Below are positions 1 to 15,459 of a stretch of 26,989 bases of DNA, in pieces. A program made the position numbers and the translations under genes. The stretch's first letter is position 1. The number at the start of each line of letters is the position of its first letter. The stretch comes from a virus, in the UHGV virus genome UHGV-0205323; one strand, written 5' to 3'. The notes under the pieces were generated by a model that ran no database searches, was not told where the DNA came from, and was given only the letters and a program-made list of their open reading frames with translations.

Positions 1-113
1 ATCGAGCAGAGTCCATAAAGGCTCATAAATGCTCTTCCATCCCCGTCTAATTGGCGGGGAAGGAAACCACTTTGTAATAAAAAAATTCCAAAGTTGTTTC
101 ATCGGAGGTCAAC

Positions 114-413
114 ATGACAGTAGTCATTACATATCTGGCTGACGATAACGCCAGAAATCGCCGCAGAGCACGCAGACAGGCTCAACGTGAACAGGCAATG
201 CAAGAGCAGCGACTGGCGCGAAAGATTGCGCTAAAGCTCTCTGGTTGCGTCAGAGCAGATAAAGCAGCATCACTCGGAAGCCTTCGCTGCAAGAAGGCAG
301 AAGAAGTCGAGCGTAAACAGAACCGTATTTACTACCGCAAGCCACGCAGTGAAATGGGTGTGACCTGTGTTGGTCGCCAGAAAATGAAATTAGGCAGCAA
401 ACCACTTATTTGA
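114..413 (+). CDS. hypothetical basic Arg-rich protein (99 aa)
   Basis: Complete ORF with GGAGG Shine-Dalgarno 6 nt upstream of ATG at 114; stop TGA 411-413 abuts the next ORF; no recognisable domain. Confidence 0.45.
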   Translation: MTVVITYLADDNARNRRRARRQAQREQAMQEQRLARKIALKLSGCVRADKAASLGSLRCKKAEEVERKQNRIYYRKPRSEMGVTCVGRQKMKLGSKPLI

Positions 414-424
414 GAGGAATTAAT

Positions 425-1048
425 ATGTCATCAATCCGCTTAACTACGAGAATGAAAGAGGAAATCGCTCGTAACGCTTTAATTAAGTCTGGGGTTTTCA
501 CTGAACTTGAAGAAGTAACAAAGTTAAAGAACCAGCTTGCACTTGACGCCAGAGTTATTGCGTTTGGCGGTAAAAAGAAAACTGAGGAAGTGGATCGGTT
601 ATCATCCAAGTTAGCAGCTATAAGTGAAGAACTTGAGAAGATGGGATGTTCATTTTACTCATGCGATGTTCGTTCTGCTTCGATTTATCTGACTGTATCT
701 GGAAGAAGGGTTGGCTGGCATTCATACGGAAAAGACGGCAACGGTGAAGATATATTGCTCCCCACCCCAGAAAAAGATAAATGCATGTTTGACGCAGAAC
801 ACGAAATAACAAAAAGGTTTGATGAAATCTGCGCATTGCAACAAAAACTTGAAGCCAAGAAAAAGGATATCGAATCAAATGTATGGGCTGCTTTGAACTC
901 AGTCACAACAGTTAAGCGACTTATTGAAGTTTGGCCTGAAAGCAAAGAATTGCTACCAAAAGAAGCAGATAAAGCAAGTACAGCACTTCCTGCTTTACGG
1001 GTAGAAGATTTGAATAAGATGATTGGACTTCCTTCCGAGGCCGCATAG
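425..1048 (+). CDS. hypothetical early protein (207 aa from ATG 425; six-frame track starts at TTG 410)
   Basis: Long ORF in early operon orientation; GAGAGG RBS upstream of ATG 425; followed by a hairpin plus T-run; no domain recognised. Confidence 0.5.
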   Translation: MSSIRLTTRMKEEIARNALIKSGVFTELEEVTKLKNQLALDARVIAFGGKKKTEEVDRLSSKLAAISEELEKMGCSFYSCDVRSASIYLTVSGRRVGWHSYGKDGNGEDILLPTPEKDKCMFDAEHEITKRFDEICALQQKLEAKKKDIESNVWAALNSVTTVKRLIEVWPESKELLPKEADKASTALPALRVEDLNKMIGLPSEAA

Positions 1049-1063
1049 TCGGCCTTTATTTTT
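1038..1063 (+). terminator. putative rho-independent terminator overlapping stop codon of 425..1048 ORF
   Basis: AGGCCG(1038-1043) / CGGCCT(1050-1055) stem with 6-nt loop, followed by TTATTTTT. Confidence 0.5.
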
Positions 1064-1221
1064 GGCATAAACAACAGAATAAACACTGAACTGTGTATTC
1101 ATTCCAACGAGTGAATACACGGAGCAATGTCGCTCGTAACTAAACAGGAGCCGACTTGTTCTGATTATTGGAAATCTTCTTTGCCCTCCTGTGTGAGGGC
1201 AATTTTTTTGATGGAGGAATT

Positions 1222-1638
1222 ATGGAAATTACAGATATTCTGGTTAATCCAGATAATTACGACCAATTCAATATCTCTACTCAATCAGTTGATTTGGGTT
1301 GTGCAAGTGTCAGCGCATGGCTACTTAATGGTAAACAGTTGGATAAATGCCTTGATGCACATATGACGGTTAACAGCTTCCTTGCAGAAAAAACACACTG
1401 GCAAGATGCTGGAGGGAAATATGCTGGATGGCTTGAAAGCATGGGATTTGAATATCAATCTGATGAAGGTTGGTGGAGCCTTATAGCTGTAACGCCTGAG
1501 ACAATAGAATGCTTCGTTAAATACTCAAACGACGATGACTATAAACACCAGGTGGATTCTGCGATAGAAAGATATAAAAGAAAATCATTCAGCCACGAAA
1601 TATCATCAGTTCTTGATTTCATAGAAGTCTTCAAATAA
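1222..1638 (+). CDS. hypothetical acidic, Trp-rich early protein (138 aa)
   Basis: Strong GGAGG RBS 6 nt upstream of ATG 1222, inside the longer 1168..1638 track ORF; net acidic composition; no domain recognised. Confidence 0.5.
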   Translation: MEITDILVNPDNYDQFNISTQSVDLGCASVSAWLLNGKQLDKCLDAHMTVNSFLAEKTHWQDAGGKYAGWLESMGFEYQSDEGWWSLIAVTPETIECFVKYSNDDDYKHQVDSAIERYKRKSFSHEISSVLDFIEVFK

Positions 1639-1670
1639 GCCGCCTAAGCGCGGCTTTACCGCATACTAAT

Positions 1671-1696
1671 AACGCTTCACTCGAGGCGTTTTCGTT
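1671..1696 (+). terminator. possible weak terminator/attenuator hairpin
   Basis: AACGCTTC / GAGGCGTT stem (one G-U pair) with 4-nt loop followed by TTCGTT; lies between 1222..1638 ORF and the small-ORF cluster. Confidence 0.35.
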
Positions 1697-1722
1697 ATGC
1701 AATCAAACAGAAGGAGTTACCC

Positions 1723-1857
1723 ATGATGCACTTTCAGCTCGCGGGTAGCGGCGTCATGTCCGCTTTCTACCCGCACGAATCTGAATTATCACGCCGAGTT
1801 AAACAATTAATCAGAGCAGCAAAGAAACAACTGGAGGCGTTATGCGCAATGAAATAG
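1723..1857 (+). CDS. small ORF (44 aa), hypothetical
   Basis: AAGGAG RBS 6 nt upstream of ATG 1723; below the 60-aa cut-off of the ORF track; translated by hand. Confidence 0.35.
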   Translation: MMHFQLAGSGVMSAFYPHESELSRRVKQLIRAAKKQLEALCAMK

Positions 1858-1994
1858 CCATCAATCACCAGATACTTCGTGCTGCACAAAACAAAGCAGT
1901 AATAGCCAGATTTATTGGTGATTCAAAAATGTGGCTTGAAGCAAATAAAGCGATGAAATCAGCTATCAACCTTCCGTGGTATCGCAGGAAATGA
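1842..1994 (+). CDS. small ORF (50 aa), hypothetical
   Basis: GGAGG RBS upstream of ATG 1842; overlaps the end of the preceding small ORF; translated by hand. Confidence 0.35.
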   Translation: MRNEIAINHQILRAAQNKAVIARFIGDSKMWLEANKAMKSAINLPWYRRK

Positions 1995-2148
1995 GTTTTA
2001 CAGATAACTGGTCAGACGAAGAATTCATTCGTCAGATGAAAGAATTAATCGGTAACGAAGGAGATATTCATGTCACTTGCAACCACGGTGAAGGAGAGCA
2101 AGTTACAGAGACGCATGTACACGCAGAAAGCTCTCTGGTATCGCCATA
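1990..2148 (+). CDS. small ORF (52 aa), hypothetical acidic protein
   Basis: ATG 1990 overlaps the TGA stop of the preceding small ORF (ATGA coupling); translated by hand. Confidence 0.35.
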
Positions 2149-2248
2149 ATGGCGACCGCGAAGGAATGCGGGTATGCCTTAATTTGTCCAGAGTCGAAGT
2201 ATTAAACCAGCGTTATTTCCTTGGGCCGTGTCCATTCTGAGGTGAATT

Positions 2249-2956
2249 ATGGATTTGAACAAATTCGATGAGCCATTCAGCCCTGAAGATATCGAATGGC
2301 GAATACAGCAAAGCGGTAAAACACGCGATGGCAAGGTGTGGGCTATGGTGCTGGCTTATGTCACGAACAGGGCAATCATGAAACGCCTGGACGATGTTTG
2401 CGGCAAAGCAGGATGGCGCAATGAATACCGCGATATTCCCAACAACGGAGGCGTTGAATGCGGCATATCAATCAGGATTGATTCCGAATGGGTAACCAAA
2501 TGGGATGCTGCTGAAAACACGCAGGTAGAAGCCGTCAAAGGTGGTCGTTCAGGTGCAATGAAGCGTGCTGCCGTTCAGTGGGGAATCGGTCGGTATCTGT
2601 ATAACCTTGAGGAAGGTTTCGCACAAACATCTCTCGATAAAAAGCAGGGATGGCACAGGGCAAAACTCAAGGATGGAACAGGATTTTACTGGCTCCCTCC
2701 ATCGCTGCCGGGATGGGCAATCCCAGCATCAAATAACAAACCATCACCAGAAAATACCAACCAGAAATCTCCATCGGTTGACTGCGAGCAAATCCTGAAA
2801 GACTTCAGCGATTATGCGTCAACAGAAACTGACAAGAAAAAACTCATCGAGCGTTATCAGCGTGACTGGCAATTAATGGCTGGCAACGAGGAGGCGCAGG
2901 CTAAATGCGTTCAGGTAATGAACATCAGAGTTAACGAACTAAAACAGGCGGCATAA
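2249..2956 (+). CDS. Rad52-like single-strand annealing protein (recombinase)
   Basis: 235-aa ORF; N-terminal half has a Rad52/22-family-like pattern (GAMKRAAVQWGIGRYLY region); GAGGTGA RBS; immediately upstream of ssb. Confidence 0.7.
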   Translation: MDLNKFDEPFSPEDIEWRIQQSGKTRDGKVWAMVLAYVTNRAIMKRLDDVCGKAGWRNEYRDIPNNGGVECGISIRIDSEWVTKWDAAENTQVEAVKGGRSGAMKRAAVQWGIGRYLYNLEEGFAQTSLDKKQGWHRAKLKDGTGFYWLPPSLPGWAIPASNNKPSPENTNQKSPSVDCEQILKDFSDYASTETDKKKLIERYQRDWQLMAGNEEAQAKCVQVMNIRVNELKQAA

Positions 2957-7217: not shown

Positions 7218-7466
7218 AATAGCGGGTAAAATATTTTTCACATCTAAAAAACACCATTCTAATCAATCCCCTGCTGCGTCAAGTAGATGTCTGCAGGGGA
7301 CACCATTTATCAGTTCGCTCCCATCCGTACCAGTCCGCAAAATCCCCTGAATATCAAGCCTTCCGTAGATTCACAGTTCGTAATGGTTCGCGTCAGATCG
7401 TTGACAGCCGCACACCATGACGGGTAAAAAGTGGATAAAATAATTTTACCCACCGGATTTTTACCC
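7212..7466. repeat. cluster of GGGTAAAAW 9-mers in both orientations spanning the xis stop to the int start; candidate Int/Xis binding sites or attP arm sites
   Basis: GGGTAAAAT at 7212-7220 and 7224-7232; GGGTAAAAA 7422-7430; GGATAAAAT 7433-7441; inverted ATTTTACCC 7443-7451 and TTTTTACCC 7458-7466; an 8-bp inverted repeat TCCCCTGC/GCAGGGGA at 7267-7274 and 7293-7300 lies between the two groups. Confidence 0.55.
7401..7430 (+). promoter_or_regulatory. candidate int promoter overlapped by the GGGTAAAAW repeats
   Basis: Consensus -35 TTGACA at 7401-7406; weak -10 TAAAAA at 7425-7430 (18-bp spacer); no experimental support. Confidence 0.3.
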
Positions 7467-8624
7467 ATGCTCACTGTTAAGCAGATTGAAGCAGCAAAGC
7501 CGAAAGAAAAACCATACCGCCTTCTCGATGGTAATGGCCTGTACCTTTATGTCCCTGTATCAGGGAAAAAGGTATGGCAGCTTCGCTACAAGATTGACGG
7601 TAAGGAGAAAATCCTGACCGTCGGAAAATATCCGCTTATGACTTTGCAGGAGGCAAGGGATAAGGCATGGACTGCGAGGAAAGACATCTCGGCTGGCATC
7701 GATCCGGTAAAGGCGAAAAAGGCTTCGTCTAACAACAATTCCTTTTGTGCGATTTACAAGGAATGGTACGAGCACAAGAAGCAAGTCTGGTCAGTAGGCT
7801 ATGCAACTGAACTTGCCAAAATGTTTGATGACGACATTTTACCCATCATCGGCGGTCTTGAGATTCAGGATATTGAGCCGATGCAACTGTTGGAAGTAAT
7901 CCGCAGATTTGAAGATCGCGGTGCAATGGAGCGAGCCAACAAAGCACGCAGAAGATGCGGCGAGGTTTTCCGTTACGCTATTGTCACCGGAAGGGCTAAA
8001 TATAACCCGGCACCTGACCTTGCTGACGCCATGAAGGGATACCGCAAGAAGAACTTCCCGTTTCTTCCTGCAGACCAGATCCCGGCATTCAACAAAGCAC
8101 TGGCAACATTTTCAGGAAGTATCGTATCGCTCATTGCGACCAAAGTTTTACGCTACACAGCCCTAAGAACGAAAGAGCTTCGTTCCATGCAATGGAAGAA
8201 CGTCGATTTTGAAAACAGGATTATCACTATCGACGCCAGTGTGATGAAGGGACGCAAAATTCATGTGGTTCCGATGTCGGGCCAGGTAGTTGAACTTCTC
8301 ACTACGCTAAGCTCCATCACTAAACCAGTATCAGAGTTTGTTTTTGCCGGGCGCAACGATAAGAAGAAGCCAATCTGCGAGAACGCGGTATTGCTTGTGA
8401 TCAAACAAATCGGCTATGAGGGTCTGGAAAGCGGTCACGGATTCAGGCATGAATTCAGCACAATTATGAACGAGCACGAATGGCCTGCTGATGCTATTGA
8501 AGTGCAACTGGCACATGCCAACGGCGGATCTGTACGCGGGATTTACAACCATGCTCAGTATCTGGATAAGCGCAGAGAAATGATGCAGTGGTGGGCGGAT
8601 TGGCTTGATGAAAAGGTGGAGTGA
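7467..8624 (+). CDS. int: tyrosine integrase, P4-type (DUF4102 N-terminal domain)
   Basis: N-terminus MLTVKQIEAAKPKEKPYRLLDGNGLYLYV...WQLRY typical of P4/CP4-57-like integrases; C-terminal catalytic region with HGFRH and conserved R/H/Y context; start placed at ATG 7467 rather than the track's 7431. Confidence 0.85.
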   Translation: MLTVKQIEAAKPKEKPYRLLDGNGLYLYVPVSGKKVWQLRYKIDGKEKILTVGKYPLMTLQEARDKAWTARKDISAGIDPVKAKKASSNNNSFCAIYKEWYEHKKQVWSVGYATELAKMFDDDILPIIGGLEIQDIEPMQLLEVIRRFEDRGAMERANKARRRCGEVFRYAIVTGRAKYNPAPDLADAMKGYRKKNFPFLPADQIPAFNKALATFSGSIVSLIATKVLRYTALRTKELRSMQWKNVDFENRIITIDASVMKGRKIHVVPMSGQVVELLTTLSSITKPVSEFVFAGRNDKKKPICENAVLLVIKQIGYEGLESGHGFRHEFSTIMNEHEWPADAIEVQLAHANGGSVRGIYNHAQYLDKRREMMQWWADWLDEKVE

Positions 8625-10513: not shown

Positions 10514-11404
10514 TCAGTAGTTATGTACTGAAGGAGGTAATTCTTTATTCTTAAGTCTCATCCATGCGGAAAGATTCGCTGGTCCGTCTGGCTCATTAAT
10601 ATCAACATCTCGTGTGTGGTTTATTAAAACGTCTCTCGCCATTCCGATAACATACGAGAACTCATGACCGTAGTCGTAGCATCTTCCGGAATAGTTCGAT
10701 TGAATTTGTTTTAACGCCGGATACAGTTCGCGGAATAATGCCTGTGAACGGTTGGCATAATCCCATAACCATACAAGACTGTTTGCTTCTTTTGCAGAAA
10801 GCTCGTTGGTCTTCTTCTCTTGTTTGCCGATAAACTCGCCTTCAAGCACTACCCTGTGGATGTACTCTACGGCCAGCGGGATTTGTTCAATTGAAAGTTC
10901 ATCAATGCTGTCAATACCAAAACGCTGATGAACCATATTGTATGCATCGTCATAGCGAAGTCCTTTCTTTCCTACCAGCATGTTTACTGCATCGCGTAGC
11001 GGTGTGCGTTCAGCTACTGAAGTTTTACCGCCAATAGCCTTCCTCTCTTGTGTGGTAGTAACCATTGCGTCATATGCACGGATAACCTTCAGCGCAAAGG
11101 CTGCGCTAATCCACATGGCGTAGGAGTAAACAAGCTCCTTGCACACGTAGGTTCCACCATATCTACCTTTCTTAGAAAGGACGGGATTCTTATTCTGCAT
11201 ATCCGCAGAATTAAAAATTTCATTAATCAATTCAATAGTTTCATTTCTACGCATGAAGAAAGCTGGCTGATGTTTTTCCTCCTTTCCAGACGCTACATGA
11301 AGGTCATTAAGCGAGTAACGACCCTCTGAATCCATATGAATCTTGACGTCAGAAATGATGATGCTATTAGTGCAATTTACAGTTGACTTTGCTAAGCTTG
11401 ACAT
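10514..11404 (-). CDS. ant: antirepressor Ant with KilA-N-type N-terminal domain
   Basis: 296-aa ORF downstream of arc on the same strand; N-terminal KilA-N-like pattern ([36 protein letters not shown]); position matches the P22 immI arc-ant arrangement. Confidence 0.65.
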
Positions 11405-11728: not shown

Positions 11729-11965
11729 ATGTCACGCGAAGAGCCGCAAATAAATATCAGGATTTCCAAAGAGTTAAAGGCAAAGGTTAAAGCCAGGGCG
11801 CAACATAACAAGCGTTCCATGAATGCTGAAATAATACAGATTATCGAAGATGCTGTTTGTGGTAGATCGCTTAATAGCAATGAATTTGCTCAGAAAGAGG
11901 CTGACAAATTCAGGGATGCGCTACTTGAAACACTGAAAACCATGTATGGTAAGGATGAAAAATAA
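11729..11965 (+). CDS. mnt: Mnt-like ribbon-helix-helix repressor
   Basis: N-terminus MSREEPQINIRISKELKAKVKARAQHNKRSMNAEIIQIIEDAV parallels P22 Mnt (ARDDPHFNFRMPMEVREKLKFRAEANGRSMNSELLQIV, recalled); divergent from arc-ant. Confidence 0.75.
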   Translation: MSREEPQINIRISKELKAKVKARAQHNKRSMNAEIIQIIEDAVCGRSLNSNEFAQKEADKFRDALLETLKTMYGKDEK

Positions 11966-12501
11966 TGCTGCACACAATTCATTTCTTATGCCCCGTTAAC
12001 ACTGCCACTGTTGGGCAACTTCAGAACCACTGTCTCACCGCATTATCTCAAGGCGCAACTGAATTAAATATCCATATATCAAGTCAGGGAGGGGAAACTG
12101 CCGCTGGTTTTACTGCGTATAACTTTCTTAAGTCACTCCCTGTTACCGTTAGAACTCACAACATAAGCAATGTTGAATCCATAGCTAATATCGTTTTCCT
12201 GGCTGGCTCAGAACGTTTCGCAAACCCATTATCAAGATTCCTGTTACATCCTCTATTATGGGGCTTTGCCACCCCAGCCGCCGACCATGCCAGATTGAGA
12301 GAGTACGGGAAATGCCTCGATAACGATCTTGATCGCTTCGTTGAGACGTTCAATATCGACATCGGAACCCATATTAGGTGGGCATCCCTGATAGCAGACT
12401 CGACCATTTTGGATGCTAACAAGGCTCTTGAGCATGGCATAATTAATTCCATAAAAACTGCAAGGCTGGTATCCAATCAGGCAAACTGGTGGGTTGTTTG
12501 A
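11965..12501 (+). CDS. ClpP-fold serine peptidase-like protein, translationally coupled to mnt
   Basis: ATG overlaps the mnt stop (TAATG); sequence aligns by eye to the E. coli ClpP core (IHISSQGGETAAGFTAYNFL vs [20 protein letters not shown]; Ser in SNVESIANI at the GQAASMGA position; His in FLLHPL at the MIHQP position; C-terminal LEHGIINSI vs VEYGLVDSI). Confidence 0.6.
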   Translation: MLHTIHFLCPVNTATVGQLQNHCLTALSQGATELNIHISSQGGETAAGFTAYNFLKSLPVTVRTHNISNVESIANIVFLAGSERFANPLSRFLLHPLLWGFATPAADHARLREYGKCLDNDLDRFVETFNIDIGTHIRWASLIADSTILDANKALEHGIINSIKTARLVSNQANWWVV

Positions 12502-12808: not shown

Positions 12809-13240
12809 TTAATCTTGCTTTGTAGACGGTATAAGGGATGCGTTTGCCTCTTTTGGCTTCAAGGTATACATCCCACCATTAAATGGATCAACAGCAAGCC
12901 AACCAATTAACCCACCAAACACAAGGTTTCCACCAATATACCAACCATTAGCATTGGCTTTGATTGGCAGGGTAACTGGTTCGTACCCATCCTTCTCCAT
13001 AGTGATCTGGTAGCTCTTTTTGCCAAAATAACTACCATCTGACTTGGCAAGAGTTACTCCTTGCGGGGTCTTACCTTGCGCAACAATCACGCCTGATTCG
13101 TCTTTTACCTTAAAGCTCGCACCGGAAGGATTGCTGTTCACTTGCACAAGCTGTGTTTCGTCACCAACAATAGTTGCGCACCCAGATAACATGATAGCGC
13201 CAGCAACGACGCTAATAATCCTCTTCATATCAATTTCCAT
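12809..13240 (-). CDS. lipoprotein (signal peptide with lipobox LSGC); candidate superinfection-exclusion or surface-modifying moron
   Basis: N-terminus MKRIISVVAGAIMLSG-C has a type II signal peptide and lipobox; Gly-rich C-terminal segment WYIGGNLVFGGLIGWLAVDPFNGGMY; followed by its own terminator; alternative start ATG 13228. Confidence 0.6.
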   Translation of the reverse strand: MEIDMKRIISVVAGAIMLSGCATIVGDETQLVQVNSNPSGASFKVKDESGVIVAQGKTPQGVTLAKSDGSYFGKKSYQITMEKDGYEPVTLPIKANANGWYIGGNLVFGGLIGWLAVDPFNGGMYTLKPKEANASLIPSTKQD

Positions 13241-13323: not shown

Positions 13324-15459
13324 TTACTCCTGTGTCATTCCGCTTAGCGATGCCACAATCCCAGCCCTCGACAAACGCTGGAACTCTTCGTTTCCTAATG
13401 CATCGCGAATTGCTTTTACGGCGGCCTTATTTGCCATAAATCTGCGTTCCGCCGCCGCTAATGCGCCATCACTTGCCCCAACCTTAACTGCCTTTGTTGC
13501 CTCTTGAACAGCCTTTTCAATAGCGTAACGACCACTTCTGGTTGCGGATAATTTCGCTATCGATCCTTTTGCTATCGCATCAATTGCTCCACCTGCAGCG
13601 CCACCAACTATTGCTCCAATAACACCTCCTCCAGAGAACCCTGCGATAGCGCCAGCGGTTGGAAAAGCGCCAGACAATACGCTCTCTAAAACTGGATGAA
13701 GGCCATTCTCAAGAGTGCTAATGGCTGGCATAGAGCGCCCTGTCTGTTCAACATATCGAAGTGGCTTTGTTGCAGCTCTTGCAAGTTCTCCGTATGAACT
13801 TGTAATCCTGCCAAGTTCTGGAGAATATCGACTAATTGCCTTCACGTTTTGTGGGGTAAGAATAGTCGCGATATGCTTAATTCCAGCCTCTTCAGACTTA
13901 CCTCCGCGTACCCCTTGCGATACCGCATCTTGTAATATTGATGCAATTGCTGGCGCGCGTTCCGACTCAGGTAGGGCGCTTATTATTTTATGAAACTGAC
14001 CTGTTCCACTTTTTGCTGAGCCCTGTAACGCCTTAGAGCCATTAGTTACTAACTGATCAGTTGCAAGGTCTCTACCAAACGCTGCTTCAGCCTGTTCTTG
14101 TGCTGTAAATCTTGCTTTTGACAGATCATTAGCTTTTTGCCAGTCATCAAGAAAACCGCCATTTTGAGCCATTATGCGCATATCTTCCGTTGCTGCATCA
14201 CGAAGCTCAGCCATGCGCCTTGCCGTATTTGCCTCACCAGACCTTATATACTTCTGCTCTGCGTCAGCAAGTTTACTTCGCCATGCCTTCATGGCATCAA
14301 ACGTGATTCCTTTTTTACCAGTTTTAGCATAAGCAGATGCGAATTGTTTCATCTCAGGAGTTAGCGGCATGCCAGCCAAAATATCACCCTGAATTGTAGC
14401 GTTCAGGTTTGACATTCTGGCCTTTGCGTCAGGCATCGTGGAGCGGACGCTATCCCATGCAGCCTTTTCTGAATTTTTCATTTTATCAATACTTGCCAAA
14501 ACCCTTTGTTTTATGGCTGCACTTTTTTCTGATGCAGTTCCTGCTTCAGCCCCAAACTCATCCAATGCTGAGTTAAATTTCGACTCTATTTCACTGAATG
14601 CTTTGGTGTGTGCATCCTGTGTAATTCCGGGCTTTGACGCCAGAATCCCCTCCGCCTGAGCAAGACCACGACTACCTGATCTCATGCCAGGAGTTAATGC
14701 GTTGATATCTATTCCAGCAGTATCTGCTGCTTTTGCTATTTCGTCTGACACATTAGCTGACTGTCTGGCAATAATCTCTCTTCCTGTACCAGACTTTGCC
14801 ATTTTCGAAACATCAGCAGCGGAATTTATTGCCCCGCCACCAAGAACTTGAGGTGATTTAGAGGTTAAGATCCTTCCAGCCCCAGAAAGTATCCCCTGAG
14901 TACCAATATTGATACCACCGTTAATGGCAGCATTTTGTGCAAAATCGCCCTCCTGATTTGCAGCATCAGCAAGAGAACCGGCAATCATGTTTCCTGCGGA
15001 ACCGATATCTCCAGCGAGCTTTGCTGTCGCTCCAGCAGCTTTTGCCGCTGTGCCAATTGGCAGGAGATACCCACCAATTGTTTCACCGGCTTGCGCATAA
15101 GGGTCTGTCGGTCTGTCTACTGGACGATAAACATCATCCAAAACCTTGGGTCCACCAAGCCCCTGACTGATTGCATTAATCAGACTTGCGCCGCCCTGCA
15201 ATACGTCAAATGGTATGTTTACCAGACCACGACCAGCCTGTTCTGCAATTTGCCCTGCACTTTGACCACCAGTGAGCCAATCGCCAGCTTGTTGCATCAA
15301 TGATGGTTCTTCCCGTGTTGGTGCATTATTGGCCTGATTAACTGTTTGTTGCTGAACAGCCTGACCAGCAAAATACTCATCAATGGCGGTGCCAATATCT
15401 TCCGTGCTCGTACCATCAGGGAAGGTAAATGTCTTACCGTTTGCAGTTACTTTCATCAT
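13324..15459 (-). CDS. ejection (internal virion) protein, P22 gp16-like
   Basis: 711-aa Ala/Gly-rich protein in the position of P22 gene 16 after gp7 and gp20; start overlaps the gp20 stop; assignment by synteny and composition. Confidence 0.65.

Follow-up and report, generated by a model that had tools for sequence, protein, structure and literature searches.

In phage lambda, the interval between the antiterminator gene N and cIII carries sieB, ral and ea10, and in P22-type phages it carries gene 17 (e.g. H-19B gp17). Ral relieves type I restriction, and gp17 is labelled 'superinfection exclusion' by both Pfam and PHROG; P22 gene 17 helps P22 to grow on, or to overcome exclusion in, certain lysogens. 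Here we describe the corresponding interval of the virus genome UHGV-0205323, a stretch of 26,989 nucleotides (nt) that is referred to as the window and to which coordinates apply unless another locus is named. The region under study (positions 410-1638, plus strand) encodes two proteins of 207 and 138 amino acids (aa), which are named ORF-A and ORF-B below (ORF, open reading frame).

Two further described systems bear on this locus. The lambda ral-ea10 region encodes the Hfq-dependent small RNA (sRNA) PreS (LPR1), which is approximately 88 nt long, is processed to approximately 68 nt, and has the terminator tL2a as its 3' end; PreS is expressed in the lytic cycle, activates translation of dnaN, represses alaS, and is conserved in approximately 2,500 genomes (bioRxiv 10.1101/2024.10.31.621285). 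For the Nmad5 protein family, the sole experimental information found comes from Dhillonvirus phages, in which a substitution in nmad5 (K216E/K296E) escapes the Tmn defence, and in which the gene was toxic when cloning was attempted (PMC11846954).

Position in the early operon

ORF-A (425-1048) and ORF-B (1222-1638) are the first genes after N and are promoter-proximal, as they lie directly after N (114-413) and before cIII, kil and erf on the same strand. The N-like transcription antiterminator (99 aa, plus strand) has an Arg-rich N-terminus and matches phrog_271 ('anti-termination protein N-like', E 5e-37), with a weak match to Pfam N_peptide; the equivalent gene is labelled N in the annotations of mEpX2, ECP1 and N7. 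The downstream boundary of the accessory interval is formed by cIII (1723-1857, plus strand) and kil (1842-1994, plus strand), and the annotations of mEp235, ECP1 and H-19B have cIII and Kil at corresponding places. Beyond kil, the plus strand continues with genes for an Erf/Rad52-type annealase, SSB, an exonuclease and Abc2, then Ea22-like and DUF551 genes, and the integrase (7431-8624); P22-like late genes (tailspike head-binding domain and others) are found further along on the opposite strand. The plus strand thus represents the pL (early-left) direction of a P22/Sf6-like lambdoid phage. The original prediction, made from the sequence alone, had placed the two genes at the distal end of the early operon, which is wrong: they directly follow N and precede cIII, kil, erf, ssb, exo, abc2 and int.

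The two ORFs and their good ribosome-binding sites (RBSs) were predicted correctly. The RBS of ORF-A is GAGG at 414-417, located 7 nt 5' of the ATG and just past the stop codon of N (411-413), and the start codon is supported by the 28 of 28 aligned homologues that begin with M-S-S-I/V-R-L-T; the RBS of ORF-B is GGAGG at 1213-1217. Both genes are lower in G+C content (ORF-A 41%, ORF-B 38%) than the window (47%), and neither protein has hydrophobic segments.

The PreS/tL2a block between the two genes

The sequence between ORF-A and ORF-B is a structured non-coding block that was identified, from its sequence and position, as a homologue of lambda PreS/tL2a. Window positions 1060-1209 are approximately 97% identical to the lambda ral-ea10 intergenic region, and a PreS (LPR1) homologue is predicted at 1122-1209 (plus strand), its 5' end being an estimate from the published length. 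It ends at tL2a, for which the terminator scan gave a stem at 1181-1202 and a run of seven T at 1203-1209. Over 1122-1209, only two positions differ from lambda; one belongs to the loop of the terminator hairpin and the other to its 3' arm. The identity of approximately 97% exceeds the 92% to lambda LPR1 that is used as the conservation threshold in bioRxiv 10.1101/2024.10.31.621285, and the element lies upstream of the ea10 slot and ends at tL2a. The operon position and the GC-rich hairpin with its U-tail are the same as in lambda; the genes that flank PreS differ, being ral and ea10 in lambda, and Nmad5 (ORF-A) and ORF-B in the window.

Two more hairpins precede the PreS homologue. A terminator-like hairpin with T-run extends over the ORF-A stop codon (1037-1062, plus strand; 7-bp stem with five GC pairs, followed by TATTTTTGGC), and the T-run at the end of ORF-A and the sequence downstream of it are shared with lambda just past ral. 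RNA folding then gave a 12-bp stem-loop at 1093-1120 (plus strand), in which 1093-1104 pairs with 1109-1120, with one G.U pair and a CAAC loop. This stem-loop lies just 5' of PreS, and its sequence does not vary between the window, mEp235, ECP1, H-19B, an E. coli prophage and lambda. It directly adjoins the estimated 5' end of PreS, and processing at the hairpin might set that end. The 130-nt block as a whole folds into three hairpins of -46.1 kcal/mol (z = -5.9), with none of 200 shuffled sequences as stable, and approximately 110 nt of it are invariant among the window and the four other phages or prophages named above; on these grounds the hairpin block is more than a product of chance.

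The inverted repeat at 1093-1120 had been noted in the original prediction as a possible regulatory site of 9-10 bp, lacking a T-run and preceding the region. The repeat exists and has no T-run of its own; however, the stem is 12 bp rather than 9-10 bp, it lies between the two genes and not before the region, and a canonical terminator (the tL2a hairpin and T-run) follows 60 nt downstream. The guess of a regulatory site was borne out in part, in that the repeat is a conserved stem-loop immediately 5' of PreS/tL2a, but it does not constitute a new site.

A search of Rfam 15 (E-value mode, window positions 1-2300) gave no match, and the block thus belongs to no curated Rfam family. The prophage sRNAs AgvB/AsxR and the Pas sRNAs were considered as candidates and rejected, both sets being located at the PR' moron site near Q/stx/lysis.

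Two exchangeable cargo cassettes

The layout of the interval is N, slot 1, PreS/tL2a, slot 2 and cIII, that is, two exchangeable cargo cassettes around a conserved block. The slots were surveyed in 120 IMG/VR loci that contain the exact 44-nt core of the block, and the counts given include in addition the reference loci and the window; the core was chosen as the search pattern, and a pattern that included the terminator loop gave 0 matches, the loop being variable.

Slot 1, occupied by ORF-A in the window, contains Ral in 28 of 95 loci, a 156-aa protein in 17/95, Nmad5 in 13/95 and a 149-aa membrane protein in 9/95, the remainder of the 95 loci having other cargoes. Slot 2 is empty in approximately 47 loci and contains Ea10/DUF2528 in 35, a 322-aa coiled-coil protein (phrog_1376) in eight, P22 gp17 (PF17420) in four, the PHROG 'anti-restriction protein' phrog_14587 in three and phrog_13002 in one locus; ORF-B was found in five unbiased loci, in three loci fetched via ORF-B and in the window itself. 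The phrog_1376 protein (loci L036, L040, L047, L062, L099, L108, L117 and L123) is highly charged, with E/K/R/A repeats, and far larger than the other cargoes. All small slot-2 cargoes, including ORF-B, are strongly acidic, with net charges of -10 to -17. Ral, P22 gp17 and lambda Ea10 are alternative cargoes at the operon positions of ORF-A and ORF-B, to which they appear unrelated: neither ORF-A nor ORF-B has a Pfam match to Ral (PF11058), GP17 (PF17420) or DUF2528, and hhalign comparison of the ORF-B family gave a probability of 0.4% with Ea10 and 0.2% with gp17. No functional data for DUF2528, PF17420 or the PHROG identifiers were found in the literature.

The slot-2 cargoes share their left junction, RBS and start position. 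Their ATGs lie 9-20 nt past the T-run, and ORF-B starts 13 nt past the T-run of tL2a. The junction around the GGAGG site of ORF-B (plus strand) reads TTTTTTTGA(C/T)GGAG(G/T)AA..ATG before ORF-B, gp17 and the 'anti-restriction' gene of ECP1, and exchange in slot 2 appears to take place at the start codon or within a few bases of it, with the RBS retained. The same order of T-run, GA(C/T)GGAG(G/T)AA and ATG was observed at the left junction in individual loci (window 1203-1224; L007-L009), and the Ea10 start is likewise at most 20 nt from the T-run. On the right, two hairpins follow ORF-B (1637-1696, plus strand); the first (1637-1656) belongs to the cassette, and the second (1671-1690), with a T-rich tail, to the conserved right flank before cIII, which is also present in mEp235, where slot 2 is empty.

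Slots 1 and 2 represent independent cassettes, because Nmad5 and ORF-B show no significant association (together in 2 of 94 assessable loci, Nmad5 only in 9, ORF-B only in 3; Fisher p = 0.10) and because in one E. coli prophage ORF-B is accompanied by another slot-1 gene; a two-gene system of Nmad5 and ORF-B was rejected for the same reasons. In four further divergent contexts, one of them in an rV5-like phage, a hairpin, a T-run and an RBS are found directly 5' of the ORF-B homologue, and the ORF-B gene either travels with its upstream terminator or preferentially lands behind one. The GC-rich hairpin that directly precedes the homologue is a different one in each of the divergent lambdoid prophages and in MaxTheCat, an rV5-like phage (L136, L137, L138, L003; 3870-4003); in L138, a PreS-like stretch is partly preserved (84% over 56 nt).

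ORF-A, a member of the Nmad5 family

The original prediction had found no assignable features in either protein, which holds for ORF-B but not for ORF-A. Judged by profile comparison, ORF-A is a full-length member of the Nmad5 family: residues 4-203 align with positions 1-206 of the 206 positions of the Pfam profile PF18757 (E 5.9e-71; 239.2 bits, cut-off 27), and the protein matches phrog_1965 (E 3e-83). PF18757 was found in all of the 71 homologue clusters of ORF-A. An identity of 96.6% was found with mEp235 gp37 and with genes of Stx phages, HK542 and others. Among enterobacterial, Dhillonvirus, Yuavirus and N4-like members of the family, R5, L6, W170, P171, E172, L196, N197, G201 and P203 are invariant, and the strongest conserved element is the C-terminal T-x-K-R-L-I-E-x-W-P-E (wider form T-x-K-[R/K]-L-I-x-x-W-P-E). 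ORF-A resembles mEp235 gp37 and Dhillonvirus nmad5 in the end-to-end Pfam match and in this C-terminal motif; the Dhillonvirus proteins are longer than ORF-A and have an extra insert.

The structure predicted for ORF-A consists of a coiled coil and a beta-hairpin, with no enzyme-like core (model predicted local distance difference test, pLDDT, 84), and the protein is thus predicted to be non-enzymatic. The model gave no structural match, and no significant PDB relative was obtained in sequence or profile searches.

The Tmn-escape residue of Dhillonvirus nmad5 (K216E in SM_A8, K296E in SM_S22) corresponds in the alignment to R165 of ORF-A (nt 917-919), a basic position inside the most conserved motif; of the 31 sequences, 28 have R in this column, two have K and one has Q. 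This correspondence ties the Nmad5 family to a defence system, with the role left undefined. A second possible link, through the 'NMAD' domain of the DefensePredictor paper, was rejected, this domain being Nmad2.

The family name derives from the gene neighbourhood in some virulent phages. In the Yuavirus Lydia, the Nmad5 gene lies between the genes for a 5-hydroxymethyldeoxyuridine (5-hmdU) DNA kinase and a deoxyuridine (dU) hydroxymethyltransferase, upstream of DNA polymerase; in the M6-like phage SN1, it is listed within the thymidine-hypermodification cassette; and in the N4-like Shigella phage B2, it adjoins thymidylate synthase and DNA polymerase. The association with modification genes is a contextual feature and no membership criterion of the PF18757 hidden Markov model, and this context does not apply to ORF-A. 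In contrast to the Nmad5 genes in the nucleotide-metabolism clusters of Yuavirus, M6-like and N4-like phages, ORF-A stands alone, directly after N, in a temperate phage, and no nucleotide- or DNA-modification genes were found near it among the scanned ORFs of the window or in the 7-kb mEp235 locus. In Dhillonvirus, nmad5 is the lone opposite-strand gene among head genes.

ORF-B, an acidic, Trp-rich family

ORF-B matches phrog_8967 over its full length (E 1.1e-86, positions 1-138 of 138). It has an isoelectric point of 4.51, 23 Asp and Glu against 11 Lys and Arg residues, and five Trp (3.6%); the excess of approximately 12 negative charges and the high Trp content noted before were thus confirmed, and the excess is exactly 12. 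This composition is a family trait, since the 56 aligned members are without exception net acidic (median charge -9) and have a median of five Trp. The family signature is D-W-G-G-x-Y-A-x-W-L ... G-W-W-S (56 relatives), in which Y67, L71 and W84 are invariant; most of the conserved positions hold an aromatic residue or Gly (Y67, W84, W85, G75, G83), and none looks catalytic.

No Pfam, NCBIfam or PADLOC match was obtained for ORF-B, no meaningful Pfam family match for the 56 aligned relatives, and no significant relative in PDB sequence and profile searches. ORF-B has few close relatives (65-95% identity). An exhaustive profile search gave 62 representative relatives (50% clustering), and a profile search of an index of 5.8 billion proteins gave nothing beyond close relatives. 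No confident homologue with a housekeeping function was found for either protein in the Pfam, PHROG, PADLOC, NCBIfam and PDB searches. The remote-homology and structure comparison proposed in the original prediction assigned ORF-A to the Nmad5 family, and gave no structural matches for either protein.

Among isolated phages, the ORF-B family is confined to 115 rV5-like (Vequintavirus-type) records of approximately 136 kb (67% identity), and tblastn searches with two distant family members returned the same 115 records and nothing else. In these virulent phages, the homologue belongs to long arrays of small genes that share one strand. Prophage homologues always occupy the interval from N to cIII or to the recombinase, and this also holds where the identity is 62-79% and the N type differs. 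ORF-B was found in 35 of 5,426 complete E. coli genomes, whereas 2,230 of the 5,426 carry the flanks; ORF-B is a rare cargo in a common slot.

Two observations on the distribution of ORF-B are recorded separately. Sixteen records named 'Campylobacter phage' (128-143 kb; e.g. MG065690, MG065644) carry the Vequintavirus homologue (67% identical to the window protein), and 15 of the 16 list Campylobacter jejuni as host; the labels may be doubtful. A defective prophage of E. marmotae (CP099344; L004 4729-4827) has an intact ORF-B, and its upstream Nmad5 gene has been reduced to a 32-aa remnant, which adjoins an insertion sequence (rve transposase); in this prophage, slot 1 has decayed while slot 2 has been retained.

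ORF-B was also compared with Ocr and ArdA, the DNA-mimic anti-restriction proteins, which it resembles as a small, acidic, early-expressed phage protein. There is no sequence, profile or fold match, the fold comparison resting on an ORF-B model too weak for a judgement on mimicry. Ocr has a higher charge density than ORF-B, whose net charge is -12 over 138 aa, and the conserved residues of ORF-B are for the most part aromatic or Gly rather than a patterned array of Asp and Glu.

Possible functions of ORF-A and ORF-B

By analogy with the alternative cargoes, ORF-A and ORF-B may be stoichiometric binders in phage-host or phage-phage conflict (counter-defence or host takeover), a reading to which we give an even chance. 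The candidacy for anti-defence or host takeover put forward in the original prediction thus survives through the position of the genes in the N-to-cIII slots, not for the reason of distal position given there. ORF-A would be co-expressed with N as an immediate-early product before antitermination, because it starts 11 nt past N with no terminator between. ORF-B, which lies directly behind tL2a and has no convincing promoter of its own, would for these reasons be translated only from N-antiterminated read-through transcripts in lytic growth; the scan showed no promoter-like site upstream of either gene. Each protein would then bind a host or rival-phage protein, after the model of Ral and gp17 in the same slots. 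This proposal is favoured by the alternation of both genes with conflict genes (Ral, gp17), by their lack of enzyme-like features and their low GC, by the position of the Tmn-escape residue in the Nmad5 motif, by the rarity of ORF-B in a common slot, and by the occurrence of the ORF-B family in temperate lambdoid prophages as well as in virulent rV5-like phages. ORF-B, a small protein predicted to be soluble, is a reasonable anti-defence candidate, whose putative role is supported only by position and composition.

Several observations weigh against the binder proposal. Deletion of Dhillonvirus nmad5 does not abolish the Tmn sensitivity (PMC11846954), and the nucleotide-metabolism and hypermodification context of Nmad5 in some virulent phages suggests a role tied to DNA and not to immunity. 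Arguing from the position of a gene is imperfect, since Ea10, the commonest slot-2 cargo, is without known function, and lambda sieB, located between N and PreS, is a defence rather than a counter-defence gene. PADLOC-DB v2 contained no families matching ORF-A or ORF-B at E <= 1, this library being one of defence, not anti-defence, proteins, and a search of plasmids for a location in conjugative leading regions returned only phage genomes filed as plasmids. For ORF-B, the structure prediction was weak overall (one of five models reached pLDDT 77), and a Foldseek search of BFVD missed even the viral homologues; the lack of a known fold is soft evidence for these two reasons. Neither protein was found by sequence prefix in those supplements of the accessory-gene screen of Silas et al. 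that were searched.

A more specific form of the conflict proposal is tentative and, taken jointly, rather doubtful. In this form, ORF-B would represent a new immune-antagonist family acting via its aromatic/Gly core, and solo Nmad5, as an immediate-early product, would antagonise KAP-NTPase (Tmn-like) immunity or act as a decoy for it; the ORF-B core (DWGG-Y-A-W-L ... GWWS) would neutralise a strain-variable E. coli defence protein or sequester an immune signalling nucleotide, and ORF-B would be exchanged between lambdoid and rV5-like phages as a terminator-RBS-gene cassette.

Alternatively, ORF-A may assist phage DNA or nucleotide metabolism instead of antagonising immunity, as would a non-catalytic subunit or a DNA-associated adaptor of the replication or base-modification machinery; in lambdoid phages, where no modification pathway would be involved, its target would be DNA or the replisome. 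The family name and the Nmad5 neighbourhoods in Lydia, SN1 and B2 agree with such a role, but we regard it as unlikely: neither the scanned window ORFs nor the 7-kb mEp235 locus yielded a gene for a hydroxymethylase, kinase or transferase, Dhillonvirus nmad5 stands alone among head genes, the predicted coiled coil is without an enzyme-like core, and in the lambdoid slot 1 the gene alternates with Ral and small accessory genes.

For ORF-B, the corresponding alternative is a host-takeover factor unrelated to immunity, which would bind and divert one of the central machines of the host, such as that of replication, transcription, division or proteolysis, in the manner of the neighbouring Kil and cIII peptides and of PreS, which boosts DnaN. 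ORF-B is set among host-manipulating early functions (PreS upstream, cIII and kil downstream), is small and acidic with no enzymatic signature, and occurs in virulent phages with large early-gene arrays. However, its distribution is rare and patchy (35/5,426 E. coli genomes, 5/94 IMG/VR loci), and it is freely swapped for unrelated cargo or nothing; a strain-specific conflict gene fits these observations better than a factor for a universal machine, which makes the takeover role improbable.

Least probable, and in our view very unlikely, are prophage defence or superinfection-exclusion morons that protect the lysogen in the manner of lambda sieB: the location of sieB between N and PreS, the 'superinfection exclusion' label of the slot-2 alternative gp17, the 149-aa membrane protein among the slot-1 cargoes and the low GC of both genes are opposed by the lack of a promoter-like site before either gene, by the repressor-controlled pL operon and the terminator in front of ORF-B, owing to which expression in a lysogen is not expected, by the ORF-B homologues in the small-gene arrays of strictly virulent rV5-like phages, and by proteins with neither a PADLOC match nor hydrophobic segments. 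With these alternatives weighed, conflict binders remain our preferred interpretation of ORF-A and ORF-B, at the strength given above.

Other features of the window

An ORF for a ClpP-like protease (178 aa, 11965-12501, plus strand; PF00574, E 4e-12) is located on the strand opposite to the late genes. Its neighbours are an antirepressor-like KilA-N/P22_AR_C gene (10514-11404, minus strand) and ORFs at 12809-13240 and 13324-15459 (minus strand). A ClpP-like protease is unusual cargo for a P22-like immI-type region.

Significance

The Nmad5 family (ORF-A), phrog_8967 (ORF-B) and the PreS RNA (2024 preprint) were already known, and lambdoid phages are classically mosaic in this interval; the locus represents ordinary lambdoid mosaicism and is unsurprising to a specialist. 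To this, the present analysis adds a correction of the operon position of the two genes and the assignment of the inverted repeat to the PreS/tL2a module. The interval was resolved into two cassette slots with an RBS junction in common. The ORF-B family was found to be acidic and Trp-rich throughout and to extend to rV5-like phages, and the Tmn-escape residue was mapped onto the conserved Nmad5 motif.

If ORF-B or solo Nmad5 proved to be immune antagonists, new families would be added to the anti-defence catalogue, and ORF-B would be especially useful, since virulent rV5-like phages of therapeutic interest carry a homologue. As a practical rule, the cassette sites that flank the near-invariant PreS/tL2a block could be harvested automatically from thousands of enterobacterial prophages and would thereby yield candidate conflict genes.

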